A program made the position numbers and the translations under genes. From NCBI GenBank assembly GCA_002730525.1, contig PCAK01000007.1:1409-65408 (forward strand): a stretch of 64,000 nt of DNA, read 5' to 3'. The DNA comes from Acidobacteriota bacterium (lineage in GTDB: Bacteria > Acidobacteriota > Vicinamibacteria > Vicinamibacterales > UBA823). Shown here one piece after another: positions 2,023 to 55,317 of the stretch. Each line of letters opens with the position of its first letter. The stretch's first letter is position 1. The notes under the pieces were generated by a model. It ran no database searches, was not told the DNA's origin, and saw only the letters and a list, made by a program, of their open reading frames with translations.

Positions 2023-2049
2023 GAGGCGAGTCGGGCGACAGCGGCCGGG

Positions 2050-3240
2050 CTACTTCACCGCCTTCGTTTCGCGAAGCTTGGCGATCTCGGCATCGTCGTA
2101 GCCGGCTTCGCGCAGCACGACGTCGGTGTGCTGCCCCAGAAGCGGTGCCGGTCGGCCGGTCGTCACGGGCGTCGCCGACAGCTTGAGCGGCGAGCCCAGC
2201 GTGCGAATCGTCCCAAGCGTCGGGTGCTCGGTCTCGACGACCATCTCGCGCGCCCGAACCTGAGGATCGTCCACGACTGCCGCGTAGTTGTTGATCGGCC
2301 CGGAGGGAATGTCGTGCGCCTCGAACAGTTCGAGCCAGTGGTCGCGCGGCTCGGTCTCGGTGATCCCCTCGATCTTCTTGGCCAGGGCCGCGCGATTCCT
2401 GACTCGGGCCGTGTCGTCGACGTAGTCGGGATCGGTCGCCCACTCGGCATGGCCCAGCAGGCCGCACACGCGCTGAAAGATCCGATCGTTGGCGCCGCCG
2501 AGCGTGATGTAGCCGTCCGAGCACTTCACCGCCTGGTAGGGCGCGCTCATCCGATGCGCCGACCCGAGGGGCGCCGGCACGCCGGTGCCGGAGAAGTACT
2601 CGGTCGCCTCCCACACCGACATCGCCACACCCGCGTCGACGAGCGACGTGTCGATCTGCTGGCCGCGGCCGGTCGTCGCGCGATGATGCAACGCCGCGAG
2701 GATGCCGGTCGTCGCGAAGAGCGCCGCGCCGAGATCAGTGATCGGGATGCCGGCCTTGGTCGGCGGGCGCCCGGGTTCGCCGGTGACCGAGATGATGCCG
2801 GAGACCCCCTGTGCCACCAGGTCGAACCCGCCGTGGGTCGCCTTGGGGCCGGTCTGGCCGTAGCCGGAGATCGACGCGTAGATCAGTCGCGGATTGACGT
2901 CGGCCAGCGTCGCGTAGTCGAGACCGAGGCCGGCCATGACTCCTGGGCGAAAATTCTCGATGAGGACGTCGGCCGACGAGGCCAGGCGCTCGAAGACCCC
3001 ACGACCGGCATCGGACTTGAGGTCGATGACGATGCCGCGCTTGCCGCGGTTGACCGCGTTGAAGCTCGGGCTGTCGCCGCCGGTCGCCCCAGCCATTCGC
3101 CGCGTGGAGTCGCCGGCGCGCGGCTCGACCTTGATCACGTCGGCACCCATGTCGCACAGTAGCATCGCGCAGTACGGCCCGGCCATCACCTGGGTGACGT
3201 CGAGCACGCGGAGACCGGCCAGAGTGCCGCCGCTAGGCAT
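2050..3240 (-). CDS. Family III CoA-transferase (CaiB/BaiF type)
   Basis: LRVLDVTQVMAGPYCAMLLCDMGADVIKVEP... and ISGYGQTGP are typical of the family. ORF 2050..3276 begins with GTG. The ATG at 3240 (MPSGGTLAGLRVLD) matches the usual family N-terminus, so the start is uncertain by 36 nt. Confidence 0.85.
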   Translation of the reverse strand: MPSGGTLAGLRVLDVTQVMAGPYCAMLLCDMGADVIKVEPRAGDSTRRMAGATGGDSPSFNAVNRGKRGIVIDLKSDAGRGVFERLASSADVLIENFRPGVMAGLGLDYATLADVNPRLIYASISGYGQTGPKATHGGFDLVAQGVSGIISVTGEPGRPPTKAGIPITDLGAALFATTGILAALHHRATTGRGQQIDTSLVDAGVAMSVWEATEYFSGTGVPAPLGSAHRMSAPYQAVKCSDGYITLGGANDRIFQRVCGLLGHAEWATDPDYVDDTARVRNRAALAKKIEGITETEPRDHWLELFEAHDIPSGPINNYAAVVDDPQVRAREMVVETEHPTLGTIRTLGSPLKLSATPVTTGRPAPLLGQHTDVVLREAGYDDAEIAKLRETKAVK

Positions 3241-4083: not shown

Positions 4084-5223
4084 TCAGCGGCCGGTCACCT
4101 TGCGGAACTCGTCGACGAAGACCTCGTTCTCGAGCGGCAACCCCACCGACACCCGCATGTAGCCGTCCATCTCGAACGCCTGGCGCACCTTGACCTTGCG
4201 CTCCTGCAGCAGCGAGAGGAACGTCTCGAGCGTGTCGCCGACATCGACTGTCACGAAGATGGTCTGCGTCCGCAGCGGCGCGTATCCCAGCGCCTCGAGT
4301 TGATCGTACAGATACTGCTTGCCCTCACGCACGACCTCGACCGAGCGCGTGACGTGATCGGGATCCTCGAGGGCGCCGAGCGCGGCGGCGATCGAGAGCG
4401 TGTTCTTGTTCAGCTGGCCGAACCCGAACCTGGCCAACCGCTGCATCAGTTCGGGGTTGCCGATCCCGTAGCCGACCCGGATCCCCCCGAGCCCGTACGC
4501 CTTCGAGAACGTGCGTGTGACGAGCACGTTCTCGCGCTCCTGCGCCAGGGCGATCGCCGAGGGATAGTCTGGCTCGTCGACGAAGTGGATGTAGGCCTCG
4601 TCGACGCAGAGCACGACATCGTTCGGCACCCGCTCGGCGAAACGCCGCAACTCGCCGGCGGCGAGCAGTTGCCCGGTCGGGTTGTTGGGGTTGCAGACGA
4701 ACACGATGCGGGTCTCGTCGTCGATGGCGTCGAGCATCGCGTCGAGGTCGAGGCTGAAATCGTTCGTCAATGGTACCCGTCGAACTTCGCGATCCAGCGT
4801 CTCGGTCTTGCGCGGCACATCGGGATACGACGGCGACGCCGTCACCGTGTTGCCGGAGCGATCGAAGTACGATGCCGTCACCAGCAGGCTGAGAATCTCA
4901 GACGACCCGACACCGGTCAGGATCGTCTCCTCCGGAATGTCGTGATGCGCCGCGAGCGCCTGCTCGAGCTGGTTGTGGAACGGATACCGGTTCATGCCGA
5001 ACATCCGACTGGCGACGGCTTCGATGGCGCGGCGAGACGAGCCCAGTGGGTTCTCGTTGATCGACAGTTCGACCAGTTCGGGGTCGTCGAGACCCACGCC
5101 GCGAATGTCGCGCAGCACCGGCGAGTTGACGAGCTGCGCGGCGGCTTCCCACCAGGGCGTACCCGCCAGGGTCAACCCGGCGCTGCCGGCGATCGTGCGG
5201 CGGAAAAAGCTTCGGCGATTCAT
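4084..5223 (-). CDS. HisC-like class I/II PLP aminotransferase with twin-arginine (Tat) type signal peptide
   Basis: N-terminus MNRRSFFRRTIAGSAGLTLAGTPWWEAAAQ has an S-R-R-x-F-F motif, a hydrophobic region and an AxA site. Body motifs are NENPLG, NPNNPTG and the TFSKAYGLGG PLP-lysine motif. GGAAGGGGAG RBS upstream. Lies 18 nt downstream of the transporter gene. Confidence 0.8.
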   Translation of the reverse strand: MNRRSFFRRTIAGSAGLTLAGTPWWEAAAQLVNSPVLRDIRGVGLDDPELVELSINENPLGSSRRAIEAVASRMFGMNRYPFHNQLEQALAAHHDIPEETILTGVGSSEILSLLVTASYFDRSGNTVTASPSYPDVPRKTETLDREVRRVPLTNDFSLDLDAMLDAIDDETRIVFVCNPNNPTGQLLAAGELRRFAERVPNDVVLCVDEAYIHFVDEPDYPSAIALAQERENVLVTRTFSKAYGLGGIRVGYGIGNPELMQRLARFGFGQLNKNTLSIAAALGALEDPDHVTRSVEVVREGKQYLYDQLEALGYAPLRTQTIFVTVDVGDTLETFLSLLQERKVKVRQAFEMDGYMRVSVGLPLENEVFVDEFRKVTGR

Positions 5224-5241: not shown

Positions 5242-6519
5242 CTAGCCAATCCCGATCTTCAGCACGGTGAATAGCAGATAACAGACGGCGGCGCCGACGA
5301 CGGTCATCGAAAGGCCCCAGGCCATCAGTTTATTGAACAGGGCGCGCGGGTCCTCGCTCTTGGGCGCGGCCGCCAGGCAGAGCGCGCCGAGTGTCGACAG
5401 GGCCGAGACATCGACGATGTGCCCGCCGACGTTCATCGCCGACGCGATCGCTATCGGCGGCACGCCGCCCAGTGCCTCGGACAGTCCCGGCACCGTCGGC
5501 AGCATCGCCGGCAGGACGACGCCCGACGTCGAGCTGTAGATCGAGATGAACCCGGTCGAAAAGGCGATGACCGCCGTGACCGACTCGGGTGTGGACATGC
5601 CGGCCAGCAGCCGGGTGAACAGGTCGAGGCCGCCGGTCTCGTCGAGCAGTGAGATCAGCACGGTCACGCCGCAGACCATCATGATGACGCGCCACGGCAT
5701 CATGTTGACCGCTTGAAACTCGTCGCCCACCTTGAAGAGCGACAGCAGAATGGCGCCGGTGAAGGCGCCCATCCCGATATTCACGCCGAAGAAGATGACT
5801 CCGACGATCAGCGCGAGGATCACCGCCATCGTCACGTAGTGATCGCGCGTGAAACTCCAGTCGGTATCCTCGCCGCCGCTCCCCGGCACCTCGATCTCGC
5901 CGGTGTGGCGCTTCCCCATCAGCTTCAATCCGCCGAGCAAGAAGTACGCGCCAAAGGCGATCACCGTGTGCGCCGCCATGTTGTTCAGATAGTTGTGCCA
6001 CTCGAACCCGATGAGCCCAACGTCGGCCATGACGCCGTTGACGATGACGCCGGTCGGCGCGATCGGTGACAGCGAACCGGCATTGGCGCCGTTCCCCACC
6101 ATGATGGCGACCAGGAACGCCGGGATGCCGACCTGTCCGGCCACGGCCATCGCCATCGGCGCAATGATCGCCGTCGACGCGATATTGCCGGGGCCGATCG
6201 ACGCCAGGACGAACGCCAGGACGAAGAACATCATCGGGATGACGCCGACATTTCCGCGGCAGTAGAGCACCGCGCGGCGGGCAATCCGGTCAAGCGTGCC
6301 GTTCGCCTGGGCCTGAGAGAAGAGCAAGGTCACGCCGGCTAGTGTGAGGAAGAGCCGGGTCGGGAAGCCCGCCATGATTTGGTTCGGCCCGACGCCGGCG
6401 TAGAGGCCGACCAGCCAGGCGAGCGCGATCGCGAGAAAGCCGACGTGCAGCCGGATCGTGCAACTGACGACGATCGCAACCAGCAGGGCGAGCAACGAGA
6501 CCGAAGCGGCATCGAACAT
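5242..6519 (-). CDS. Ion-transporter-superfamily anion permease (MatC/CitMHS/ArsB-NhaD-like)
   Basis: 425 aa, polytopic and hydrophobic throughout (MFDAASVSLLALLVAIVVSC...GNGANAGSLSPIAPTG...), with a central hydrophilic loop. The subfamily assignment is tentative. Confidence 0.65.
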   Translation of the reverse strand: MFDAASVSLLALLVAIVVSCTIRLHVGFLAIALAWLVGLYAGVGPNQIMAGFPTRLFLTLAGVTLLFSQAQANGTLDRIARRAVLYCRGNVGVIPMMFFVLAFVLASIGPGNIASTAIIAPMAMAVAGQVGIPAFLVAIMVGNGANAGSLSPIAPTGVIVNGVMADVGLIGFEWHNYLNNMAAHTVIAFGAYFLLGGLKLMGKRHTGEIEVPGSGGEDTDWSFTRDHYVTMAVILALIVGVIFFGVNIGMGAFTGAILLSLFKVGDEFQAVNMMPWRVIMMVCGVTVLISLLDETGGLDLFTRLLAGMSTPESVTAVIAFSTGFISIYSSTSGVVLPAMLPTVPGLSEALGGVPPIAIASAMNVGGHIVDVSALSTLGALCLAAAPKSEDPRALFNKLMAWGLSMTVVGAAVCYLLFTVLKIGIG

Positions 6520-36554: not shown

Positions 36555-37634
36555 ATGACGACCAACGCCGCCGTCGAGAGGATCCGTCAGACCGTCCGCG
36601 CCCTCTCTGGCTACTACGACGTCAACCCAGACGCCGACGTCAAGCTCGATCAGAACGAGAACGCGTACGACTTCCCGGAGCCGTTGAAGCGGGAGACCTT
36701 CGAACACGCCGCCGCCGTACACTGGGAGCGCTACCACGAGGTGCGACCCGCCGCCCTGCTCGACGGGCTCGCGGCCCTGACCGGCTGGCCGGCCGATGGG
36801 CTCCTCGTGGGCAACGGCTCGAACGAACTGCTGCATGCGACGATCCTCGCTTCGGCCGCCGTGGGCGGGCGCGTCCTGACCGTGCAGCCGAGTTTTCCGC
36901 TATACGACCGGCTCTGCCGACTGCTCGGGGCTGAATTGGTCGGCGTTCCGCTGGACGCGCGGCTGGCATTCGACTCGGATCTCATCCGCCGGGAGATCGC
37001 TCGCACCGAACCGTCACTGGTCGTGATCTGCAACCCGAACAATCCGACGGGATCGGTGATCGCTCCTGATGGACTCGAGGCCATCCTCGACGATTACAAG
37101 GGCATCGTGCTCGTCGACGAAGCCTACTATGAGTTCTCGGATGGCAGCTTCCGTGCGTTCTTGGATCGGCACGACAACCTGCTGTTGCTGCGGACCTTCT
37201 CCAAGGCGATGAGCCTGGCCGGCATCCGCGTCGGCTACCTCCTCGGCGCGCCGACCCTGGTCGGGGAGATCTCGAAGGCCAAGCTGCCGTTCACCCTCAA
37301 CCCGCTATCATGTCAGGCAGCTCTGACCGCGCTGCGGCACCAGCCGGCCCTGCAGTCGCGGGTCGACACGATAGTGACCGAGCGCGAGCGGCTGATTGCC
37401 GCACTGGGGAAACGGACGGCCATCGACGTCTATCCGTCCGCGGCGAACTTCGTCTTCATTCGGGTGCCTGGTCATGGCGATCGAACGGTCGCGGGGCTGG
37501 CGGACCGGGGCGTCCTCGTCCGCAGGCTGCGCGGGCACCCGCTGCTGGCCGACTCGATGCGCGTGACCGTCGGCACCCCCGAACAGAACGATCGGTTTCT
37601 GGCCACGCTCGACGCGGCACTGGCAGACGGTTGA
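36555..37634 (+). CDS. hisC: Histidinol-phosphate aminotransferase (cytoplasmic form)
   Basis: ATG 36555 (MTTNAAVERIRQ...). KLDQNENAYDFP, NPNNPTGS and the TFSKAMSLAGIRVGY PLP-lysine motif are present. No signal peptide. Confidence 0.75.
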   Translation: MTTNAAVERIRQTVRALSGYYDVNPDADVKLDQNENAYDFPEPLKRETFEHAAAVHWERYHEVRPAALLDGLAALTGWPADGLLVGNGSNELLHATILASAAVGGRVLTVQPSFPLYDRLCRLLGAELVGVPLDARLAFDSDLIRREIARTEPSLVVICNPNNPTGSVIAPDGLEAILDDYKGIVLVDEAYYEFSDGSFRAFLDRHDNLLLLRTFSKAMSLAGIRVGYLLGAPTLVGEISKAKLPFTLNPLSCQAALTALRHQPALQSRVDTIVTERERLIAALGKRTAIDVYPSAANFVFIRVPGHGDRTVAGLADRGVLVRRLRGHPLLADSMRVTVGTPEQNDRFLATLDAALADG

Positions 37635-43245: not shown

Positions 43246-43345
43246 CCTCGGCGGGCCCTGTCGCCGGCACGGCTCGCCGACGTTTGCGCTGTCTCGCCTA
43301 TCCCGATAGCCTTGCTCGGTGAATGCACCCCGACCTGGAGGCTCC

Positions 43346-45955
43346 ATGAAGCGCTGGTCTCATCTCGTTGCCCTCATCCCGTTCCTGGCGATTCCGGCCC
43401 TGGCGCCGGCCGAGCAGGCTGCCGCGCCGACGCCCGAGAGCATCATTGGCTGGGCGCCGTGCGCCGACTACAAGCTGGCCACCTATGAACAGATCGCCGA
43501 GTACTTCCGCGTGCTCGATCGGGCGACCGACCGGATGCAACTGGTCGACATCGGGCAGACCGCCGAGGGCCGCACCCAGCTCATGGCGATCATCTCGTCG
43601 GAAGCCAACATGCAGAATCTCGATCGCTACAAGGAGATCTCGCAACGGCTGGCACGGGCACGCGCGACCGAGGACGAAGCGCAGGCACTCGTCGACGAGG
43701 GCAAGGCGATCGTCTGGGTCGATTTCGGCCTGCACTCGACCGAGGTGGCGCACGCGCAAACCGCGCCGTGGATGGCCTACAACGCGGTCACGGAAGAAAC
43801 GGAGGAGATGCGGTTCATCCGGGACAACGTCATCTTTCTCCTGGTACCGAACATGAATCCGGACGGCACGACGCTGGTGGCCGACTGGTACATGCAGCAC
43901 GTCGGCACCGAGTACGAGGATGCGCCGTTGCCCGAGCTGTACCAGAAGTACGTCGGCCACGACAACAATCGTGACTGGTTCATGTTCAACCAGCCCGAAA
44001 GTCAGAATATCGGCCGTCAGCTCTATCAGGAATGGTTTCCGCAGATCGTCTACAACCAGCACCAGACCGGGCCGTTCCCGTCGCGCATCTTCATTCCGCC
44101 CTTCGCGGAGCCGGTCAACCCGAACATTCCGCCGCTCGTCATGCGCGGCATCAACGCCGTGGGCACGGCGATGGGCCGGCGGTTCGATCAGGAAGGCAAG
44201 TCGGGCGTCGTCTCTCGGGTCGGCTTCGATACCTGGTGGAATGGCGGCATGCGCACGGCGCCGTACTTTCACAACATGGTCGGCATTCTGACCGAGACGT
44301 CGCACGCCTCCCCGGCGCCCGCCGTGTACGACCCCGAGACCTTCCCGGCCACGTTCGGCAACGGCGAATCGACGACCGCCCCGTCGGCGTTCTATCCGAA
44401 CCCGTACATGGGCGGCGAGTGGCACCTGCGTGACAGCTGCGAGTACATGCTGACCGGATCGATGGCGGTGCTGGACATCGGCGCCAAGCGACGCGCCGAA
44501 TGGCTCTCGAACATCTATCAGATGGGTCGGGAGGCGATCGCCGACGGCGAGAACGAGACCTACGTCATCTCGACCGACCAGTGGGACCAGGCGACCGCCG
44601 CGAAGCTCGTCAACGTGCTCCGCTGGGGCGGCGTCGACGTCGAGTTGGCCAACGCCGCCTTCACGCTGGACGGCGCATCGTATCCTGCGGGCAGCTACAT
44701 CGTGCCGGGTGCGCAGCCGTTTCGGCCGCACCTGACCGACTTGCTCACGCCACAGGTCTACCCCGATCGGCGCATCTACCCGGGCGGGCCGCCCGATCGC
44801 CCTTACGACGTCAGCGGCTGGACGCTGCCGCATCAGATGGGGGTCGACGTGCGGAAGCACTCGGGGCTGGGTTCGCAACGGGCGGAACTCGCGCTCGAAC
44901 CGGTGGAATGGGTGTCGGCGCCCAACGGCAGCGTGTCGGGCCGGGCGGCCGACGCCTACGCGATCGACCCGAAGGTGAACGATGCGTTCACCGCGGTGAA
45001 CCGCTTCCTGGCCGCCGGTGAGCGCGTGTCTCGCACGACAGCGGCCGTCGAGATCGGCGAGACGACCTGGCCGGCGGGAACGTTCCTGGTCGCCGCGGGC
45101 GACGTAACCCACGCCCGCGTCGAGGAGACCGCCCGGGCGCTCGGCCTGCGGATCTCGGCGCTCGGCTCGACACCCAGCGTCGACACGGCGCCGCTCAGCC
45201 GACCGCGTGTCGGGCTGTACCACGCGTGGGGCGGCAACATGGACGAAGGCTGGACCCGCTGGGTGTTGGAACAATTCGAGTTCGACTACGCGCAGCTCCA
45301 CGACGCCGAGATCCGTGCCGGCGATCTCGCCGAAGCCTACGACGTCATCGTCCTGCCGGATGCGTCCTACAGCAGCATGCTGCGCGGGCTCTCCGCCGAC
45401 CGGATGCCCGCCGAGTACGCCGGTGGAATGACGATCCGAGGTGCTGCCAGCCTCTACGACTTCGTCGTGGAAGGCGGGACCCTGGTAGCGATGGACTCGG
45501 CAAGCGAGCTGCCGCTCGAGATCTTCGACCTGCCGATTCGGGACGTCACGTCCGGGCAGTCGGACGACGATTTCTTCATCCCGGGCACGCTGCTTCGGCT
45601 CGACGTGGATCCGGAGCATCCGCTCGGCTACGGCATGCCCGAAGAGACGACCGCGTTCTTCTCGCGGAGTCCGGCGTTCGCGCTCGGGCGACCGCTCGGC
45701 CGCCGCGAACGGATGGTCGGCGCGACACCCGAGCCCGACCCGGCGGTCACCGCCGTGGCGACCTACCCCGACGACGACCTGCTGAAGAGCGGCTGGCTGC
45801 TGGGCGATCGGGTGATCGAGGGACGCGCGGCCGTCGTCGAAGCCGAGGTCGAGGCAGGCCGTGTCGTCTTACTCGGGTTCAGAGTCCAGCACCGCGGCCA
45901 ACCCCACGGGACCTTCAAGCTGCTGTTCAACGCGATCTATCGCGGCGGCATGTAA
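43346..45955 (+). CDS. Secreted M14-family zinc carboxypeptidase-like protein (large form)
   Basis: ATG 43346 with GGAGG RBS. Signal MKRWSHLVALIPFLAIPALAPAEQ. GLHSTEVA (HxxE), NMNPDG and GHDNNRDW are M14 motifs. About 869 aa. Confidence 0.8.
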   Translation: MKRWSHLVALIPFLAIPALAPAEQAAAPTPESIIGWAPCADYKLATYEQIAEYFRVLDRATDRMQLVDIGQTAEGRTQLMAIISSEANMQNLDRYKEISQRLARARATEDEAQALVDEGKAIVWVDFGLHSTEVAHAQTAPWMAYNAVTEETEEMRFIRDNVIFLLVPNMNPDGTTLVADWYMQHVGTEYEDAPLPELYQKYVGHDNNRDWFMFNQPESQNIGRQLYQEWFPQIVYNQHQTGPFPSRIFIPPFAEPVNPNIPPLVMRGINAVGTAMGRRFDQEGKSGVVSRVGFDTWWNGGMRTAPYFHNMVGILTETSHASPAPAVYDPETFPATFGNGESTTAPSAFYPNPYMGGEWHLRDSCEYMLTGSMAVLDIGAKRRAEWLSNIYQMGREAIADGENETYVISTDQWDQATAAKLVNVLRWGGVDVELANAAFTLDGASYPAGSYIVPGAQPFRPHLTDLLTPQVYPDRRIYPGGPPDRPYDVSGWTLPHQMGVDVRKHSGLGSQRAELALEPVEWVSAPNGSVSGRAADAYAIDPKVNDAFTAVNRFLAAGERVSRTTAAVEIGETTWPAGTFLVAAGDVTHARVEETARALGLRISALGSTPSVDTAPLSRPRVGLYHAWGGNMDEGWTRWVLEQFEFDYAQLHDAEIRAGDLAEAYDVIVLPDASYSSMLRGLSADRMPAEYAGGMTIRGAASLYDFVVEGGTLVAMDSASELPLEIFDLPIRDVTSGQSDDDFFIPGTLLRLDVDPEHPLGYGMPEETTAFFSRSPAFALGRPLGRRERMVGATPEPDPAVTAVATYPDDDLLKSGWLLGDRVIEGRAAVVEAEVEAGRVVLLGFRVQHRGQPHGTFKLLFNAIYRGGM

Positions 45956-46650: not shown

Positions 46651-47610
46651 TCAATCCAGCCTCACGGCACCTTCCGTATTCACGGGGCCGACATAGACGT
46701 CCGACTCCAGACCGGCACTGTCGCGGAACGCCTTCCGGATCGCGTCGCCGACGGATGCGGCGTCCGCGTCGCTCCCGGCGAACGCGAACACTGACGGACC
46801 CGATCCGGAGATCGAACAGCCGAACGCGCCTGCCGAGCGTGCGGCGGCCTTCACGTCGGCCAAGCCTGGAATCAGGTGCGCCCGCACCGGCTCGACCAGC
46901 CGGTCCTGGATGCTCCGGCCGAACTGGACGAGGTCGCCCCGGTGCAGCGCGTCGACAAGCGCCGCGATGTTGCCGAGATTCGCGACCGCATCGTCCAGTG
47001 CGTACGATCGCTCGGCCGTCAGGCGACGCGCGGCGGCGGTCGACACCTCGCAGTGTGGATGCACGAGCGCGACGCGCAACGCGGCGGGCACGGGCAGGTC
47101 GATCAGTTCGAGTGGATCGTAGCTGCGCACCAGGACGATCCCGCCCAGCAGACTCGGCGCCACGTTGTCGGCGTGCGGCGTCCCGGACGCGGCCGCCTCG
47201 CCGACCAGCGCGCTGGCGACCAGCTCGCGGCGCGCGATCGGCGCGCCGAACAGTTCGTTCACGGCGACCGCCCCGGCCACGGCACTTGCGCCAGAGCTGC
47301 CCAGCCCGCTGGCCAGCGGCATCCGCTTCTGCAACCACAACTTGACACCGCGGCGTAGCGGCGGACCGGCATCGAGGCCGTCGAGTCGCCTGAGCACGTC
47401 GGCAGCGGCCAGGCCGGCCACGTTGCGCGCGGCATCGGTGGGCAGGGCGCCGCCGTCGCCCGTCACCTCGACGATCTCGACACCCGGAGCTTCGCGAGAC
47501 TCGGCCTCGACGACATCGCCCGGCTCGGTCAAGGCGAGGCCGAGCACGTCGAATCCCGGGCCGAGGTTCGAGGCGCTGGCCGGGGCGAAGACACGAACGT
47601 GATCTCCCAT
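46651..47610 (-). CDS. thrB: Homoserine kinase
   Basis: 319 aa. VFAPASASNLGPGFDVLGLAL and the GHMP motif PLASGLGSSGASAVAG are present. Confidence 0.88.
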   Translation of the reverse strand: MGDHVRVFAPASASNLGPGFDVLGLALTEPGDVVEAESREAPGVEIVEVTGDGGALPTDAARNVAGLAAADVLRRLDGLDAGPPLRRGVKLWLQKRMPLASGLGSSGASAVAGAVAVNELFGAPIARRELVASALVGEAAASGTPHADNVAPSLLGGIVLVRSYDPLELIDLPVPAALRVALVHPHCEVSTAAARRLTAERSYALDDAVANLGNIAALVDALHRGDLVQFGRSIQDRLVEPVRAHLIPGLADVKAAARSAGAFGCSISGSGPSVFAFAGSDADAASVGDAIRKAFRDSAGLESDVYVGPVNTEGAVRLD

Positions 47611-47650
47611 TAAGACTCAGGGTAACAAATCGCACTGGAGCGCTCCGCTA

Positions 47651-47748
47651 GAAGACCAAGGCGCGCACAGCGCGCCTCGCGCCGGTCGGAGTGGGGCACT
47701 CGGGGCCCCCGCGAAAACCGGCGCGGGGGTTCGGGGCGAAGCCCAGAC
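47651..47748 (+). repeat. Structured intergenic repeat, copy B (partner at 10864..10949)
   Basis: gaagaccaaggcgcgcacagcgcgcctcgcgccggtcggagtggggcactcggggcccccgcgaaaaccggcgcgggggttcggggcgaagcccagac. It has a perfect ggcgcgc-aca-gcgcgcc hairpin and a cgcgccgg...ccggcgcg long-range stem. Confidence 0.65.
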
Positions 47749-47954
47749 CTGAAGATGTAACGTCTCGCCACGCGGTGCCGTCAACAACCTGCAGGAGGCC
47801 AACTCCACGGCGGCGTCGGTGCTCCGGGGCCACTCACTGGACCGTCGCTCCAGTTAACCGGTTGACAGGTAACGACTTGACGATTGTCCTGCCTGGGCCA
47901 TCGCCCGTCGCGACCCGGATGCGTTTTGCATGGGCGGACGGTCTGCTGGCTTTC

Positions 47955-47988
47955 CGTGAACCTGTCGTTCTAGAATGGCAGGTTCACG
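47955..47988 (+). promoter_or_regulatory. Perfect 10-bp inverted repeat bracketing a TAGAAT -10-like hexamer (candidate operator/promoter)
   Basis: cgtgaacctg (47955..47964), then 14 nt, then caggttcacg (47979..47988). TAGAAT lies at 47971..47976 inside the spacer. The site is ~140 nt upstream of the aminotransferase gene at 48130. Confidence 0.35.
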
Positions 47989-48129
47989 CGTGGGGGTGTG
48001 GGTTCGGGGTTCGAAAGCGCCCGAAGAGACATCGAATGGGTCGCCCGCCCAGGCGTCGCTCGCGGCGTCGAACAGGCAAGAGATCTCGCAGCCGGTTTTT
48101 GAAGCAGTTCAGTACTTGAGGAGGATCTT

Positions 48130-49314
48130 ATGTCGCTCTCGCGTCGCGCGTTCTTTCGCAATCTAGGAGCCGGCCCTGCCGACTCAGCTTCCCGCGAGTT
48201 CATCGCGGCCCGCGGGCGCGAGGCGCTCGTCAACGAAATGTGGCGCTCTGGCCTGAGCTACGAAGAGGCCGAAGCGCAGTTCGGCCCGCCGCCGGAAGGT
48301 GCCATCGTGATCTCCAGCAACGAGAACCCGCTGGGTCCCGGACCGGCAGCCTACCAGGCCGTGCTAGACGGGCTCGATCAGTGGGCTGGGCGCTACCCGA
48401 CGAACTTTCGGCCGAGCCACGCCGACCTGATGCAGACGATCGCGGCCAAGTTCGATGCGCGTTCCGAGAACGTCACGCTGGGGACCGGCTCGGGCGAGAT
48501 TCTCGAGAACGCGGCGAAGGCGTTCACCGGACCGGACAAAGCGCTCATCACCGCCGACCCGTCCTACATGCAGGCGGTCAGTGTCGCGCGGCGGCACGGG
48601 CATCCGGTGAAGACCGTCGCGCTCGATGCCAACCTCCGCCTCGATCCGGAGGGCATCGCGCGCGCAGCCAGGGGCGCGGGCCTGATTTTCCTCTGCAACC
48701 CGAACAACCCCAGCTCCACGATCCTCCCGGCGTCGGATGTCGAGGCCCTCGTGAGCGAAGTGCAGCGCTCGTCGCCGGACACGCGCATTCTCATCGACGA
48801 GGCGTATCACGATTACGCGACCGACCCGGCGCACCAGACGGCGATTCCGCTGGCGCTCCGGACGCCGAACGTGTTCGTCGCCCGGACGTTCTCGAAGGCC
48901 TACGGCATGGCGGGCCTCCGGCTCGGCTACGGCATCGGCCACGTCGACACGATCAGGACGCTGGCGCAGTGGACGCACGTGTTCAACTCGAACAACCTCG
49001 CCAATGCGGCGGCGGTGGCCTCGCTGAACGATCCGGCCCACCTCGAGCAGGAGCGTGCGCGAAACACGGCCGCACGCGACTACACGATCGGTGTCTTCCG
49101 CGACCTCGGCTTCGAGGCCGCGGACTCGCAGACGAACTTCCTCTTCGTCAACCTCGGACGCCCGGCGTCCGAGTTCCGCGATGCATGCCGCGAGCGCGGC
49201 GTCATGGTCGGTCGGGACTTCCCGCCGATGGAAAACACTCACGCCCGCGTGTCGATCGGAACGATGGACGAGATGCGCCAAGCCGCTGAGGTCTTCAGGC
49301 AGGTGCTGGCATAG
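48130..49314 (+). CDS. HisC-like PLP aminotransferase with Tat-like N-terminus (weak h-region)
   Basis: MSLSRRAFFRNLGAGPADSAS.... NENPLGPG, NPNNPSS and TFSKAYGMAGLRLGY are present. GAGGAGG RBS. 394 aa. Confidence 0.8.
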   Translation: MSLSRRAFFRNLGAGPADSASREFIAARGREALVNEMWRSGLSYEEAEAQFGPPPEGAIVISSNENPLGPGPAAYQAVLDGLDQWAGRYPTNFRPSHADLMQTIAAKFDARSENVTLGTGSGEILENAAKAFTGPDKALITADPSYMQAVSVARRHGHPVKTVALDANLRLDPEGIARAARGAGLIFLCNPNNPSSTILPASDVEALVSEVQRSSPDTRILIDEAYHDYATDPAHQTAIPLALRTPNVFVARTFSKAYGMAGLRLGYGIGHVDTIRTLAQWTHVFNSNNLANAAAVASLNDPAHLEQERARNTAARDYTIGVFRDLGFEAADSQTNFLFVNLGRPASEFRDACRERGVMVGRDFPPMENTHARVSIGTMDEMRQAAEVFRQVLA

Positions 49315-49408
49315 ACCCAAGAGTGCCAGCGAGACAGTCATGAACAACGATTCACTGCCCGGACGATCGAAGCAGCCGGGAACGCTTTTCAGTATCGAGG
49401 AGGAATCC

Positions 49409-50575
49409 ATGTCGTTTTCGCGACGCGCGTTTGTGAAGACTCTCGGGATCGGGGGCGCAGCCGCGCTCTCGAGCAGCTACATCCCGAGGGCGTACGATCT
49501 GCCTTCGTTCTGGACCCCGACCCTGCTCGCGCAGGAAGGTCCGCTCCTGCTACATAACAACGAGAACCCGCTCGGCCCCGGCGACAGGGTGCTCAACGCG
49601 ATCCGCGAGCACATCGCACCGGACGGCGCGACGATCGGCCGGTACCCGTTCGCACTGACGGGCGGTCTGGCGCGGGCAATCGCCCAGCGGTTCGACGTCG
49701 AGCCCGGCAACATCATCATGGGCACCGGTTCAACGCAGGCGCTGCGGACGGCCACCCAGGTCTACACCAGCCCGACGAAGGCGCTCGTCACCGCCACCCC
49801 GACCTACGAGGAGTGCACGCAGTACGCGCAACTCATCGGCTCGGCCGTCGTCGAGGTCGGCCTCAACGAGAACCTGGAACTCGATCTCGACGAGATGGCG
49901 GCGGCGGCTCGAGGCGCTGGGATGGTGTTCCTGAACAATCCCAACAACCCGACGGCGACCGTCCACCCCGAGGATGCGGTGAACGGGTTCATCGACGACG
50001 TGCTCACGGCATCGCCCGATACGATGATCCTCGTCGACGAGGCGTATCACGACTACGTGACCGACCCACGCCACGTGTCGCAGATTCCGCATGCGGTGCG
50101 GAATCCCAAGGTGATGGCCGCGCGCACGTTCTCGAAGGCGCACGGCATGGCCGGCATGCGCGTCGGTTACATGATCGCCCACGAGGACACCGTGCGCGAG
50201 TTGTCGCCGTGGCACAGCTTCAACACGATGAATACGCCGGGGATCCTCGGCGCCACCATCTCGATCCTCGACACGCAGCGGCTCGAGGAAGAGGCGGCGC
50301 GCAACACCGAAGCTCGCCAGTACACGATCGACTGGTTCAAGAACGCGGGCTTCGACGCCACTGATTCGCAGTGCAACTTCATCTTCGTCAAGACGGGTAT
50401 GAACGCGCAGGAATTCCGCGATGGTGCCCGTGAGAATGGCGTGATGGTCGGCCGGAACTTCCCGCCGTACCAGGAAGAGTGGGCGCGAATCTCGATCGGC
50501 ACGCTCGAGCAGATGCAGCAGGCCACCGAGGCGTTCGCCAAGGTCCTGCGCGTCAACGCCACAGCGGCCGCCTAA
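49409..50575 (+). CDS. HisC-like PLP aminotransferase with Tat signal peptide
   Basis: ATG 49409 with GAGGAGGA RBS: MSFSRRAFVKTLGIGGAAALSSSYIP.... NENPLGPG, NPNNPTAT and TFSKAHGMAGMRVGY are present. By eye it is roughly half identical to the upstream paralogue in the aligned core. Confidence 0.8.
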   Translation: MSFSRRAFVKTLGIGGAAALSSSYIPRAYDLPSFWTPTLLAQEGPLLLHNNENPLGPGDRVLNAIREHIAPDGATIGRYPFALTGGLARAIAQRFDVEPGNIIMGTGSTQALRTATQVYTSPTKALVTATPTYEECTQYAQLIGSAVVEVGLNENLELDLDEMAAAARGAGMVFLNNPNNPTATVHPEDAVNGFIDDVLTASPDTMILVDEAYHDYVTDPRHVSQIPHAVRNPKVMAARTFSKAHGMAGMRVGYMIAHEDTVRELSPWHSFNTMNTPGILGATISILDTQRLEEEAARNTEARQYTIDWFKNAGFDATDSQCNFIFVKTGMNAQEFRDGARENGVMVGRNFPPYQEEWARISIGTLEQMQQATEAFAKVLRVNATAAA

Positions 50576-50589
50576 CGTTCCACCGACTC

Positions 50590-50626
50590 GGCGCATCCGA
50601 TTCCCGATGCGCCGGGTCGTTTTGTC
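50590..50626 (+). terminator. Candidate intrinsic terminator after the aminotransferase pair
   Basis: ggcgcatc-cgattccc-gatgcgcc (8-bp stem, 50590..50613) is followed by gggtcgttttgtctc, a partial T-run. Confidence 0.4.
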
Positions 50627-50689
50627 TCTGCTCGCGCTACCCGAGCCGGCCCGCAATCGGGCCGTCGGCTTACCCCCTGCCGGATCCCC

Positions 50690-52030
50690 ATGCCCGATCC
50701 GCCCACGACCGAGCTCAAGCGCTCGATGACCCTGGTCCCGGCGACCGCCCTGGTCGTCGGCACGATCATCGGCGCGTCGATCTTCGTGCAGCCGTCGGAG
50801 ATCACCGCGCTGGTGCCCTCGGTCGGCGGCGTGGCGGCTATCTGGCTGGTCGCGGGCATCCTGACCTTCTTCGGGGCGCTGGTCTCCGCGGAGCTGGCTT
50901 CGGCCTTTCCCCGTACCGGCGGCGTCTACGTCTTCCTGAACGAGACCTACTCCCCGGTGCTCGGCTTCCTGTGGGGCTGGGCGATGTTCTGGAGCATGCA
51001 CTCCGGCATCCTCGCCGCCATCGCCGTCGTCTTCGCCCGCTACGTCGCCTTCTTCGTCCCGCTGAGCCCAGTCGGCGTCCAGTTGGTGGCGGCCGGCGCC
51101 ATTCTCGTGCTCTCGGCGATCAACTACCGCGGCATCGAGCACGGCAGCCGGCTGCAGACCGCCTTCACAGTCGGCAAGGTCGCGGCGATCGCGCTGATGA
51201 TCGCCGTGGGTCTGGTGCTCGCGCCTGGAGAAGCGGCGAGCACGACGTCGGTCTCGGCACCGGCGGCCGCAGTAGCGTCCACCCCGATCACGTGGACCGC
51301 CATCGTGCGGGCGCTCATCGCGGGACTCTTCGCGTTCGGCGGGTGGCACATGGTGACCTACGCCGCGGGTGAGACGGTCGACCCGACTCGGACGATCCCG
51401 CGTGCACTGCTTGGCGGCACGGTCATCGTGACGATCTGCTATATCGCGCTGAACGCCGTCTACATGTACGTTCTGCCGATGGACGTGGTCATCTCGTCGT
51501 CACGCGTCGCGGCCGACGCCGCCGATGCGTTGCTCGGGAGCGGCGGCGCCGGATTGATGTCGGGTCTGGTCATCTTCTCGACGTTCGGCGCCCTGAACGG
51601 AATCGTCTTGGCGGGCCCGCGCGTCTACTACTCGATGGCGCAGGACGGCCTGCTGTTCAACTGGGCCGGGCGGGCTCACCCCACGTTCCGGACCCCGCAC
51701 CTGGCCATCGTGCTGCAGGGCGTCTGGGCCTCGGTGCTCGTGTTCACCGGCACGTACAGCCAGCTGTTCTCGCGGGTCATCTACGTCGAGTGGGTCTTCT
51801 TCGGCCTGATGGCACTCGGCCTGTTCATCCTGCGCCGGCGGCCCGACTACACGCCGGCCTACCGAGTACGCGGAGCCGCCGTCATCGCCGGCGTGTTCGC
51901 GCTGTCGTCCGCCATCATCCTGCTCAACCGTTTCCTCACTGAACCGGTCGAGGCTGTCATCGGCCTCGGCATCGTCTTGCTCGGCGTGCCCGTCTACTAC
52001 TTCTGGCTCGCCCGCCCGAAAGGAGCGTGA
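50690..52030 (+). CDS. APC-superfamily amino acid permease
   Basis: 446 aa. GTIIGASIFVQP...SAELASAFPRTGGVYVFLNETYSPVLGFLWGW is typical APC. Confidence 0.8.
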   Translation: MPDPPTTELKRSMTLVPATALVVGTIIGASIFVQPSEITALVPSVGGVAAIWLVAGILTFFGALVSAELASAFPRTGGVYVFLNETYSPVLGFLWGWAMFWSMHSGILAAIAVVFARYVAFFVPLSPVGVQLVAAGAILVLSAINYRGIEHGSRLQTAFTVGKVAAIALMIAVGLVLAPGEAASTTSVSAPAAAVASTPITWTAIVRALIAGLFAFGGWHMVTYAAGETVDPTRTIPRALLGGTVIVTICYIALNAVYMYVLPMDVVISSSRVAADAADALLGSGGAGLMSGLVIFSTFGALNGIVLAGPRVYYSMAQDGLLFNWAGRAHPTFRTPHLAIVLQGVWASVLVFTGTYSQLFSRVIYVEWVFFGLMALGLFILRRRPDYTPAYRVRGAAVIAGVFALSSAIILLNRFLTEPVEAVIGLGIVLLGVPVYYFWLARPKGA

Positions 52031-52037
52031 ACCGTCC

Positions 52038-53015
52038 TTGGCGATCATCGACTTTCATAACCACTTCTACACGCCTGGCTACCTCGCGTCGGTTCGCAAC
52101 GGCGAGACCGCGCTGAAGCACACGACCGACGATGACGGGAACCCGGTGCTGTACTACCCGGGCGACTACAACGTCGTTGTGCCGGGCCACCGCGACGCCG
52201 ACTTCCGCGACCAGGTGATGGCGGAACACGGGATCGACATGCAGGTCCTGACGTTTACGTCACCGGGAACGCATGTTGAGAGCCCCGCCGTCGCCGTGAG
52301 GCTGGCCAGCCAGGTTAACGACGACCTCGCGGCGATCAAAGCCTCGAAGCCTCGGTTCACCGCGCTGGCGACGCTTCCGCTGAACGATCCGCAGGCCTCG
52401 GTCGCCGAACTCGAGCGCGCCATGACGCAGCTCGGGTTCAAGGGGGTCATGCTGTTCAGCAACGTCAATGGCACGGCGTTGAGCGATGAACGGTACTGGC
52501 CGCTCTACGAGAAGGCGAACGAACTGGGTGCGGTCTTCTACATTCACCCGATCCATCCGGTGGGTGTCGAGGCGATGACCGACTACTGGCTGATGCCGCT
52601 GCTCGGCTTCGTCTTCGACACAACGCTGGCCGCGGCGAAGATCGTCTTCAGCGGCGTGGCCGAGCGGTTTCCCCGCATCACCTGGGTGCTGGCGCATCTG
52701 GGCGGGACGGTCCCCTACCTCGCCGAGCGGCTCGACCGGGGGTTTCACGCGTTCGCCGATTGCCGCCAGCACATCGACCGGCCGCCGAGCGACTATCTCA
52801 AGCGCTTCTACTTCGACACCGTGAATTTCGATCCCAAGGCCCTTCAGCTGGCGATCGACTTCGCCGGCGTCGGTCATGTGATCGCCGGAAGCGACTATCC
52901 ACACAAGATCGGCAGCCTGCGGCAGATGCTCGACAGCATCGGCGGCTTGCCGATCTCGGATCAGGACAAAGCCGACATCCTGGGCAACAACACGGCAACT
53001 TTGCTCGGACTCTGA
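52038..53015 (+). CDS. Amidohydrolase-2 family enzyme (ACMSD-like decarboxylase/hydrolase)
   Basis: 325 aa, TTG start. IIDFHNHFY, YIHPIHP, LAHLGG and GSDYPH motifs are present. Confidence 0.8.
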   Translation: MAIIDFHNHFYTPGYLASVRNGETALKHTTDDDGNPVLYYPGDYNVVVPGHRDADFRDQVMAEHGIDMQVLTFTSPGTHVESPAVAVRLASQVNDDLAAIKASKPRFTALATLPLNDPQASVAELERAMTQLGFKGVMLFSNVNGTALSDERYWPLYEKANELGAVFYIHPIHPVGVEAMTDYWLMPLLGFVFDTTLAAAKIVFSGVAERFPRITWVLAHLGGTVPYLAERLDRGFHAFADCRQHIDRPPSDYLKRFYFDTVNFDPKALQLAIDFAGVGHVIAGSDYPHKIGSLRQMLDSIGGLPISDQDKADILGNNTATLLGL

Positions 53016-53187
53016 CCGTATCAGCAGTAAGCAATCGCGCGTTCCGCGCCGTCAAACGATCAGGTTCGGAGGAACGTGCCTTTCATCGTAACGGCGTACG
53101 CGGGTAAGATCGGGCCGCCCCTGGGGGATGCGCGGGTCGACGTCGGCTGAGCCGGGCAGTGGGGCACGCGAACGGTAGACGCTCAGC

Positions 53188-54651
53188 ATGTCAGCAGGAC
53201 TTCTCTCTCGTGAGCGAATCGTGGCCGGCCCGCGATTCAACCGCTGGCTGATCATTCCGGCGGTCGTGGCCATCGAGGCCAGCATCGGCCAGATCTACGC
53301 GTTCAGCATCTTCAATCTCCCGCTCACCCGTGCGGTCGGCATCACCCAATCAACGCCGGACGACTGGCGCCTGACGACCCTGGGCTGGGTCTTCACGCTG
53401 GCGATGGTCTTTCTCGGCCTCTCGGCCGCTTTCGGCGGCAAGTGGGTCGAGGACGTCGGTCCGCGCAAGGCGGGTGTCGTCGCGGCGTTCTGCTGGGGGT
53501 TGGGCTTCTATATCGCCGCGGTCGGCGTGCAGACGCACCAGATCTGGCTGCTCTACCTCGGTTACGGCGTGCTGGGCGGCTGCGGCCTGGGGATCGGCTA
53601 CATCGCACCGGTCACGACACTGGTCCAGTGGTTCCCTGACCGCCGCGGTCTCGCGACCGGGCTGGCGATCATGGGGTTCGGCGGCGGCGCGATCATCGCG
53701 GCGCCGGCGTCGGAGTGGATGCTCACCCTGTTCGCCACCGAGTCGTCGGTGGGCGTCGCCGAAACGTTCGTCGTCCTCGGTACGGTCTACCTCGCGGCGA
53801 TGCTCGTCGCGGCGTTCATGATGCGGGTGTCGCCGCCGGGGTGGAAGCCGGAGGGTTGGACTCCGGTCGCAACAGGACGGATGGTCACGACCCGCAACGT
53901 GCATCCGAGCGAAGCGATCCGGACTCCTCAGTTCTACATGCTCGCGGGCGTGCTGCTGCTCAACGTCACGGCGGGCATCGGGGTCTTCAGCCAGGCATCT
54001 GCCCTGTTTCAGGAAGTCTTCGACGAGTTCTCCGCGGCGTCGGGCGCGATGTTCGTCGGTCTGCTGAGCTTCTTCAACATGGCCGGGCGGCTGTTCTGGG
54101 CGTCGTTCTCCGACAAGATCGGCCGCAAGGCGACGTTCGGGCTGTTCCTGTCGGTGGGCCCGGCGCTCTACGCGCTCGTCCCGGTCGCGGACGATCTGGG
54201 CGGCATGATCCTCTTCGTCGGGTGCTTCGCCGTCATCATCACGATGTACGGCGGCGGCTTCTCGACGATGCCCGCCTATATCGCCGACATCTTCGGCACC
54301 CAGTACGTCGGCGCCATCTTCGGACGAGTGCTGATTGCCCACTCGTGCGCGGCGGTGCTGGGTCCGGTACTGGTCAACTACCTGCGTGAGTTCCAGCTCG
54401 CCAACGGCGTACCGGCCGCGCAGTCGTACAACGTTACGATGTACATCATGGCCGGCCTGCTGGTGCTGGGTTTCTTTGTGAACCGCGCCCTGACGTCGGT
54501 CGATGACGACCGCTACCTCGATGACGCCTCGTCCGAGGAGCAACGGTCCGCCGCGGAAACGGCGACGCCGGCGGCGGGCTCCGCGCAGCGCGCTCGCACA
54601 CCGCTGTCCGACGGACCAGCCGTCCCGGATACCACGACCCCGCGATCCTAG
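53188..54651 (+). CDS. MFS transporter, oxalate/formate antiporter (OFA) family-like
   Basis: 487 aa, 12 TM. NRWLIIPAVVAIEASIGQIYAFSIF...GGKWVEDVGPRKAG...WFPDRRGLATGLAIMGFGGGA matches the OFA pattern. The C-terminal tail is acidic and Pro-rich. Confidence 0.8.
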   Translation: MSAGLLSRERIVAGPRFNRWLIIPAVVAIEASIGQIYAFSIFNLPLTRAVGITQSTPDDWRLTTLGWVFTLAMVFLGLSAAFGGKWVEDVGPRKAGVVAAFCWGLGFYIAAVGVQTHQIWLLYLGYGVLGGCGLGIGYIAPVTTLVQWFPDRRGLATGLAIMGFGGGAIIAAPASEWMLTLFATESSVGVAETFVVLGTVYLAAMLVAAFMMRVSPPGWKPEGWTPVATGRMVTTRNVHPSEAIRTPQFYMLAGVLLLNVTAGIGVFSQASALFQEVFDEFSAASGAMFVGLLSFFNMAGRLFWASFSDKIGRKATFGLFLSVGPALYALVPVADDLGGMILFVGCFAVIITMYGGGFSTMPAYIADIFGTQYVGAIFGRVLIAHSCAAVLGPVLVNYLREFQLANGVPAAQSYNVTMYIMAGLLVLGFFVNRALTSVDDDRYLDDASSEEQRSAAETATPAAGSAQRARTPLSDGPAVPDTTTPRS

Positions 54652-54678
54652 GACACTCGAACTACCCGCGAGGGCGCC

Positions 54679-55317
54679 ATGGCCATCCCTCTGTCGCGCG
54701 GCATCTGGTTGTCGGTCACCGCGACGCTCCTGGTGCTGGGCATCGCGGGCCTGGGCGCCGGCTGGCTACTCCAGCGCTACGAAACGAGCCACGCGTTCGA
54801 CGTCGAAGCGTCGCTCATCGCGGAGGCGCTCGAGTTGAGTGAAGGCGACACGGTCGCCGACATCATCGCCGGCGAGGGCGGCTGGACGATCGACCTGGCA
54901 GAACGGGTCGGCGACGCCGGGCACGTGTACTCGACGGGGAACGACGCCGACGAGACGGCGATCATCGCCGCCGCGATCGAGGCCGCCGGAGTGGGCAACG
55001 TGACGGTTGTCGAGACACCCGGTGAGGCGCTCGAGTTACCGGACGAGTGCTGCGACGCGATGCTCGTCCGCGTGATGTACCACCACATGGCCGATGGATC
55101 CGGCGCGGCCGATCGGATGCGGCAGGCGCTCAGGCCGGGCGGCCTGCTGGCGGTGATCGACTACGGCCGCGACGCGCCCGAGTTCTCGGGCGGCCACGGC
55201 GTCGATCAGGATCAGCTGGTGAACGAGGTGACGGGAGCCGGGCTCGACCTGATGCGGGTCATCGACGACTGGTCGGGCAACGCCTACTGCGCGATCTTCC
55301 GCAGGCCAAACTCCTGA
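54679..55317 (+). CDS. Class I SAM-dependent methyltransferase with N-terminal membrane anchor
   Basis: TM segment IWLSVTATLLVLGIAGLGAGWLL. Motif I is VADIIAGEGGW. The post-I and motif II regions (HVYSTGND...; MLVRVMYHH; LRPGGLLAVIDY) are present. Confidence 0.7.
   Translation: MAIPLSRGIWLSVTATLLVLGIAGLGAGWLLQRYETSHAFDVEASLIAEALELSEGDTVADIIAGEGGWTIDLAERVGDAGHVYSTGNDADETAIIAAAIEAAGVGNVTVVETPGEALELPDECCDAMLVRVMYHHMADGSGAADRMRQALRPGGLLAVIDYGRDAPEFSGGHGVDQDQLVNEVTGAGLDLMRVIDDWSGNAYCAIFRRPNS

Follow-up and report, generated by a model that had tools for sequence, protein, structure and literature searches.

The stretch of DNA analyzed here, referred to as the window, comprises 64,000 nucleotides from an Acidobacteriota bacterium (GTDB lineage Vicinamibacteria; Vicinamibacterales; UBA823; GenBank assembly GCA_002730525.1, contig PCAK01000007.1, positions 1,409 to 65,408 of the forward strand). 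The genome is 3.3 Mb in size and 99% complete, and the window has a G+C content of about 67%. It contains two adjoining genes, here called A and B, for pyridoxal phosphate (PLP)-dependent aminotransferases related to HisC, both of which begin with a twin-arginine (RR) motif, and it is the unequal state of their signals for twin-arginine translocation (Tat) that is the subject of this account. The features of the locus and those used for comparison are listed in Table 1.

Table 1. Features of the A/B locus and of other regions of the window (positions are those of the window).
Feature	Position	Strand	Basis and remarks
Gene A, upstream PtaA/PRK09105-like, HisC-related PLP aminotransferase	48130..49314	+	394 aa; open reading frame and PF00155
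Gene B, downstream PtaA/PRK09105-like PLP aminotransferase	49409..50575	+	388 aa; open reading frame and PF00155
Shine-Dalgarno-like GAGGAGGA, 4 nt 5' of the gene A ATG	48118..48125	+	direct sequence reading
Shine-Dalgarno-like GAGGAGGA, 4 nt 5' of the gene B ATG	49397..49404	+	direct sequence reading
N-terminus of A, residues 1-31: M1/R5/R6 invariant, charge-broken spacer NLGAGPADSASREF, then conserved AARGxE	48130..48222	+	Tat-signal remnant without hydrophobic core
Predicted Tat signal of B, residues 1-27: SRRAFVK, then 16 uncharged residues	49409..49489	+	TIGR01409
Terminator-like hairpin, 14-bp stem with 10 GC pairs, then T tract TTTTGTCTCT	50584..50629	+	9 nt past the B stop
APC-family amino-acid permease, neighbour within this bacterial family only	50690..52030	+	PF13520, E 1.4e-52
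Amidohydrolase-2, ACMSD/LigW decarboxylase type, no signal peptide	52038..53015	+	PF04909, E 1.3e-40; 7 nt 3' of the permease
878-aa protein with M14 carboxypeptidase domain and hydrophobic N-terminus, upstream of the pair	43319..45955	+	syntenic in 4/4 same-family loci
Homoserine kinase thrB, upstream of the pair	46651..47610	-	syntenic in 4/4 same-family loci
Genuine signal-less hisC, comparison gene	36555..37634	+	TIGR01141 292.4 bits, the only one of three passing 276.55
Further RR-bearing HisC-like aminotransferase, more distant	4084..5223	-	starts MNRRSFFRRTIAGSAGLTLAG, canonical Tat-type; 31% identical to B

The two open reading frames are intact, lie on the same strand with a spacing of 94 nt, and each starts with M-S-x-S-R-R-A-F. 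The ATG at 49409 is supported as the start of B because it is preceded at 4 nt by a Shine-Dalgarno-like sequence and because homologues share the MSxSRR beginning; the GTG at 49055, which would give the longest reading frame, was rejected, as it overlaps the 3' end of A, has no Shine-Dalgarno sequence, and disagrees with the homologues. A start farther downstream in A was likewise rejected, since M1, R5 and R6 (as well as G29 and E31) are invariant across 56 aligned sequences of the A clade. The supported starts thus retain the twin arginines, and the identification of two HisC-like aminotransferases with RR starts, which had been made in an earlier, sequence-only reading of this DNA, is borne out by the reading frames, the Shine-Dalgarno sites and the PF00155 matches (A, 165.9 bits, E 1.9e-48; B, 152.0 bits, E 3.2e-44; gathering cut-off 19.7).

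A and B are 46% identical to each other; between B and the signal-less protein encoded at 36555..37634, identity falls to 27%. Their alignments retain the catalytic set NENP, Y, NPNNP, DEAY, SK and R, with invariant columns at N192, N193, D223, Y226, S255 and K256 in A (the catalytic lysine lying in the TFSKA motif) and at N180, D210, Y213, S242 and K243 in B, where N179, the first asparagine of NPNNP, is conserved to at least 90%. The fold and the PLP-binding motifs NENP, NPNNP, DEAY and SK(A) are thus common to A, B and HisC; HisC, however, is without the N-terminal RR extension, and both A (236.2 bits) and B (210.0 bits) stay below the cut-off of the hisC equivalog model TIGR01141 (276.55 bits), which only the comparison gene passes. 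That A and B are extra paralogues beside a true hisC, as the sequence-only reading had it, therefore holds. The top NCBIfam profile for both is PRK09105 (NF006580), with scores of 265.6 bits for A and 262.0 bits for B under a cut-off of 444, and the PtaA profile NF051461 gives 229.6 and 235.0 bits under an equivalog cut-off of 500. As these scores amount to about half of the cut-offs, A and B are relatives of PtaA rather than PtaA orthologues. The profile alignments start at residues 3 (PRK09105) and 2 (PtaA) of B, and hence include its signal region, and at residues 45 and 47 of A. An AlphaFold2 model of A (predicted local distance difference test, pLDDT, 86.7) has as its top fold match the HisC-like structure 3LY1 (TM 0.80/0.89), which is nearest among solved structures in sequence as well (163 bits); being an uncharacterized structural-genomics entry, 3LY1 says nothing on function.

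The Pseudomonas enzyme PtaA, a PLP transaminase of the HisC type, is exported by Tat as a folded, cofactor-loaded protein and converts the glutamate side chain of pyoverdine in the periplasm (PMC6206403), and the P. aeruginosa aminotransferase PA2531 is entered in a table as an experimentally validated Tat substrate (PMC6085387). The statement in the sequence-only reading that periplasmic transamination is functionally uncharacterized for this family is therefore outdated: the reaction of PtaA is known, PA2531 is validated as a Tat substrate, and PtaA and PRK09105 are the top profiles for A and B. The likeness to PtaA and PA2531 lies in the type of protein, namely a HisC-like PLP aminotransferase of fold type I that carries a twin-arginine signal at its N-terminus, and the PtaA match of B spans residues 2-378. 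The differences are that the host of A and B belongs to the Acidobacteriota and not to Pseudomonas, that the scores are far below 500 bits, and that PtaA is described, in the excerpted account, as one protein with no mention of a paired subunit, whereas A and B form a conserved unit with unequal signals. Pyoverdine genes were not seen among the annotated neighbours in the window, and no search of the genome was aimed at such genes.

For the N-terminal signals, the first 50 residues of A and B were searched against the Tat-signal profile TIGR01409 (TAT_signal_seq; cut-off 16.7 bits). B passes with 22.8 bits and has a longest uncharged run of 16 residues after the twin arginine, so the convincing Tat signal that had been read in its N-terminus stands; with PF10518 (TAT_signal), the less sensitive of the two models, B reaches 15.6 bits and remains below the cut-off of 22.7. 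The first 50 residues of A gave no Tat-signal match in NCBIfam (TIGR01409) or Pfam (PF10518) at E values up to 10. A starts with SRRAFFR, and the lack of a match is explained by D18, R22 and E23, which sit within the would-be core and interrupt the hydrophobic region, leaving a longest uncharged run of 7 residues. The possibility that the RR segment of A is part of the fold was rejected, as pLDDT in the AlphaFold2 monomer stays below 50 over residues 1-20 and at 58-70 over residues 21-60, and no packing of this segment is seen in the model. The translocase is encoded in the genome by tatC (195.9 bits, cut-off 132.7) and two tatA-type genes (68.0 and 61.8 bits, above cut-off). Ordinary cores of at least 12 uncharged residues are found in 13 of the 14 strict-consensus Tat candidates of the genome, so the organism seems to be without generally unusual Tat signals. 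From the signal profile, and by analogy with known exported aminotransferases, we infer that B is exported by Tat.

Of 301 Acidobacteriota genomes sampled, 49 had a match at E<=1e-60, and about 28 of the 49 carry the genes as a same-strand tandem, as read from the coordinates; two genomes of the sample carry two pairs in succession. In the extracted loci the order is invariably A-like and then B-like, the two genes being separated by -3 to 178 bp. When one genome per species was scanned, further pairs came up only in Acidobacteriota-like records and in one labelled Longimicrobiales, single relatives with Tat signals came from Gemmatimonadota, Bacteroidota, Proteobacteria and other groups, and the matches without RR looked like ordinary HisC. 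Genes of the family, i.e., an A/B pair (L066) and a single relative (L076), also occur in two records with the title 'uncultured Bifidobacteriaceae', the labels of which are probably wrong.

In a quick maximum-likelihood tree of 75 proteins and HisC, with the Shimodaira-Hasegawa-like approximate likelihood-ratio test (SH-aLRT) as the only support measure and no bootstraps, all upstream genes (32/32) fall in one clade (SH-aLRT 96), to which seven genes without a partner and one gene of a recent tandem on contig 25 of the present genome also belong. The downstream genes form a grade below this clade. The arrangement of the A subclades parallels that of the B subclades, which suggests one old duplication followed by co-divergence.

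The asymmetry of the signals was counted after hand correction of three B N-termini, leaving out one A copy with His-Arg in place of the twin arginine and two B copies for which the start could not be fixed. Among the downstream proteins (n=31) every one has an uncharged run of at least 12 residues, and the median of the best 10-residue hydropathy is 1.59; among the upstream proteins (n=32) such a run is found in 10, the median run being 9.5 and the median hydropathy 0.68. Genes of the A clade or related to it that have no partner in their locus (n=9), which include the three other A-clade copies of the present genome, resemble B, with runs of at least 12 in 9/9 and a median hydropathy of 1.58; one of the nine lies at a contig end, where its partner may be cut off. 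Several A copies have 3-5 charges in the core, and the fraction of charged residues per column reaches 50% in the A spacer and is 0% at core columns 12-21 of B. The same pattern appears in database matches, counted irrespective of gene context: [ST]RRxF[VIL]K is present within the first 40 residues in 119 of the top 120 matches to B, and a run of at least 12 in 112 of them; a search set of 122 proteins for A, both window proteins included, has RR in 120 and a run of at least 13 in 24 only.

The twin arginine itself is retained in 32 of 33 paired A copies, and no lineage has dropped the extension of 25-30 residues in A. The one A-type gene with H-R in place of the twin arginine (L048:6099-7325, plus strand; MSLSHRALM...) has a partner that retains SRRSFVQ. 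The codons for R5 and R6 vary among CGT, CGC, CGG, CGA and AGA; this synonymous variation places the selection on the RR of A at the level of protein and not of DNA, and conservation of the 5' end of A at the DNA or RNA level was rejected on the same ground. Among the relatives, the hydrophobic core is conserved in B (31/31) and the twin arginine in A (32/33). Judged by these alignments, the erosion in A is not random decay and represents a state that is conserved in the upstream member of the pair. The weak hydrophobic region that had been noted in A is real; the suggestion that the signal may have decayed does not agree with a state that is conserved across a phylum-wide pair and with an RR motif under purifying selection, and the weakness is not a local accident.

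Two ways of exporting oligomers by Tat are known, i.e., with a signal on every subunit, or with a signal on one subunit on which the rest hitchhike (PMC3352945). We favour the reading, to which we assign a probability of about one half, that A and B together make up a single PtaA-like periplasmic PLP aminotransferase of two subunits and that the heterodimer is exported on the signal of B. A and B would fold and bind PLP in the cytoplasm, the usual fold-type-I dimer would form as an A/B heterodimer, and this dimer would cross the membrane via the Tat system. The complete signal, with SRRAFVK, the 16-residue uncharged core and a c-region, would be provided by B, whereas A would contribute the twin-arginine n-region only, and either hitchhike on B or add a second contact to TatC without insertion of a core. 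The exported enzyme would then carry out transamination of a substrate in the periplasm. We infer the formation of the heterodimer and the co-export of A from the pattern of signals: as A would always travel with B, its core would be free to drift, and the unpartnered relatives would have to keep theirs. Hydrogenase small and large subunits and PaoABC provide the precedent for assembly in the cytoplasm and export on the signal of one subunit (PMC3352945, PMC4273604); their passengers, however, are without a signal, and the presumed passenger A is a paralogue of its carrier with an invariant RR n-region.

A model of the A+B complex has an ipSAE of 0.92 (best control 0.00) and shows the canonical dimer; 116 of 157 solved complexes attain the mark used for ipSAE, as do 2 of 215 mismatched pairs. 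At least 66% of the contacts are shared between runs of the model, pLDDT is at least 85 for the partners, and B is contacted by residues 38-53 and by the core of A. Such a result is expected from the likeness to solved HisC homodimers, and it shows compatibility with a heterodimer rather than a preference for one.

Several points weigh against a heterodimer exported on the signal of B. The modelled complex cannot tell AB from AA or BB, and nothing forces a heterodimer, since A and B both keep full catalytic sets. Plain hitchhiking does not explain the twin arginine of A, because classical hitchhikers carry no RR, and the 10 of 32 A copies with uncharged runs of at least 12 residues (up to 20) could be exported alone. 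The tree comes from a quick search, has SH-aLRT support only and takes its root from an outgroup with a very long branch. The contrast between partnered and unpartnered genes reflects few independent events, the stand-alone genes belonging mainly to one subclade, and the counts overstate the support, as related genomes are not independent samples.

With regard to the invariant RR of A, the n-region may still dock on TatC, or it may serve another role in the manner of the NarG remnant discussed below. From the first of these follows a more specific proposal, which is tentative and, on the sequences at hand, somewhat unlikely to be correct as a whole: A and B would represent a phylum-wide class of heterodimeric periplasmic aminotransferases in which one subunit has the RR n-region only, a 'half signal', and the other the whole signal, so that both RR motifs would occupy neighbouring TatC sites of a multivalent receptor while one hydrophobic core inserts.

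The pair might instead be divided between the two sides of the membrane, with B exported as a homodimer and A kept as a cytoplasmic homodimer, the remnant Tat peptide of which has taken on a new role such as binding of a maturation or quality-control factor; related transaminations would then take place on both membrane sides. The missing Tat-profile match of A, the D, R and E residues in its would-be core and the full catalytic residues of both proteins are in agreement with this. The NarG remnant has a degenerate twin arginine, whereas 32 of the 33 paired A copies still have RR. Further points that speak against divided enzymes are the tight linkage of A to B in constant A-B order, their co-divergence, and the retention of the 25-30 residue extension in every lineage. 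No gene for a Tat-peptide chaperone of the NarJ or TorD type stood out among the annotated neighbours, and no search was aimed at such genes. NarG does provide a documented precedent for a remnant that descends from a Tat signal, is insufficient for export and is retained for a function (PMC10609526); it belongs, however, to a cytoplasm-facing molybdoenzyme and binds the chaperone NarJ, whereas A is a PLP enzyme with an intact RR and a signal-competent paralogue always next door. Taken together, we regard separate locations as unlikely.

Independent export of both proteins is quite improbable. It would require that the acidobacterial Tat system tolerates the short or charged core of A, perhaps by way of the hydrophobic stretch just before ARGxEA, and would result in two periplasmic homodimers with different substrates. 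The twin arginine of A is indeed conserved together with a motif [IVL]-x-[AGS] followed by RG, which in our own reading resembles a signal-peptidase site, 10 of the 32 A copies reach 12-20 uncharged residues in a row, and the stand-alone relatives in the A clade have normal signals. However, 22 of the 32 A copies have fewer than 12 uncharged residues and several have 3-5 core charges, no relaxed rule is apparent among the Tat candidates of the genome (13 of 14 with cores of at least 12), and B, with its core kept in 31/31, is without such drift.

The genes around the pair bear on the further claim of the sequence-only reading that transamination is coupled to the downstream permease and amidohydrolase-2. 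Both genes are present as described there, with PF13520 and PF04909 matches, and the top solved relatives of the amidohydrolase-2 are ACMSD (144 bits) and 5-carboxyvanillate decarboxylase (115.7 bits). The block of M14 peptidase, thrB, A, B, APC permease and amidohydrolase-2 is kept in 4/4 loci of the same family at 69-88% identity. In 16 loci outside the family, the permease is nearby in one and the amidohydrolase-2 in none. The hairpin after B has a predicted RNA folding energy of -28.1 kcal/mol (z -3.64; 0/200 shuffles fold as well), and a matching hairpin with altered loop and stem bases is present in 3/4 same-family loci. The permease and the amidohydrolase-2 probably constitute a separate, lineage-specific transcription unit, and the coupling is not supported, given synteny largely confined to the family (4/4 inside; 1/16 and 0/16 outside) and the strong hairpin.

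Four RNA libraries from three studies contain contigs with >=99% identity to A and B, and a 703-nt contig spans 49105..49804 and bridges the end of A and the start of B, although DNA carry-over is possible; such contigs show neither strand, transcript ends nor expression level. One run (X2) has contigs over the A/B region but none over 50465..52565, and missing contig cover proves nothing. A promoter scan of 47500..54800 gave 0 matches where 0.7 are expected by chance and is uninformative. We give little credence to a single pathway that joins the aminotransferases to the APC permease and the amidohydrolase-2, with conversion in the periplasm and then uptake: the four genes adjoin on one strand, the six-gene block is kept within the family and RNA-library contigs in 2/4 runs also cover the permease and the amidohydrolase, but the association is rare outside the family for the permease and not seen there for the amidohydrolase-2, the terminator-like hairpin follows B, the two genes, 7 nt apart, look like their own unit, and APC permeases transport amino acids rather than keto-acid products. 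The MFS transporter gene at 53188..54651 (plus strand) scores 319.8 bits with the L-lactate (SfMCT) model (cut-off 320); it was considered as a supplier of pyruvate and rejected, as no copy was found in the fetched same-family regions at E<=1e-10.

The distant loci offer other neighbours. A cytochrome c gene lies directly 3' of B in 4/16 according to Pfam, with two further loci added by sequence clustering, a gene for a pyrroloquinoline quinone (PQQ)-dependent dehydrogenase follows or lies nearby in 5, NHL-repeat proteins are found in 4 and a gamma-glutamyltranspeptidase in 1. An arrangement of the pair, a small c-type cytochrome and, next or nearby, a PQQ-dependent dehydrogenase of ~670 aa is seen in L045, L046 and L055 (also in L047, L048 and L051, and further away in L049 and L054). 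As proteins of these kinds are extracytoplasmic, such neighbours fit a periplasmic role for the pair, and the cytochrome c and PQQ dehydrogenase genes hint at a periplasmic amine, aldehyde or alcohol pathway, which may be undescribed.

The genome holds six RR-bearing HisC-like genes and not three, as had been counted. Five are close paralogues that match from residue 1. Besides A and B, these comprise two genes in tandem on contig 25 (L003:157-1320 and 1498-2667, minus strand) and one on contig 32 (L005:1501-2655); the paralogues on contigs 25 and 32 have intact Tat-like cores of 17-18 uncharged residues, and the contig-25 genes form a recent tandem inside a stand-alone subclade. The sixth is the more distant gene at 4084..5223, which lies directly downstream of a gene for a 425-aa multi-pass membrane protein (5242..6519, minus strand) on the same strand.

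A HisC-like periplasmic transaminase exported by Tat is an already known kind of enzyme; in the literature searched, all mentions of a 'periplasmic transaminase' concern PtaA, i.e., essentially one documented enzyme. The conserved A/B pair, of which one member has the full signal and the other a remnant reduced to RR, seems new, as literature searches found no description of paired paralogues with full and RR-only Tat signals. The pair represents a natural experiment on the needs of a Tat signal, in which RR has been kept through the sampled diversification without a hydrophobic core. A half signal, if true, would separate RR recognition in nature from insertion of the core, and would represent a natural intermediate between oligomers with a signal on every subunit and classical hitchhiking. 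The gene association with cytochrome c and PQQ dehydrogenase points to what may be an unstudied periplasmic amine, aldehyde or alcohol pathway. Given six RR-bearing HisC-like genes in one 3.3-Mb genome and relatives with Tat signals in several phyla, periplasmic PLP chemistry may be much commoner in environmental bacteria than the literature suggests.

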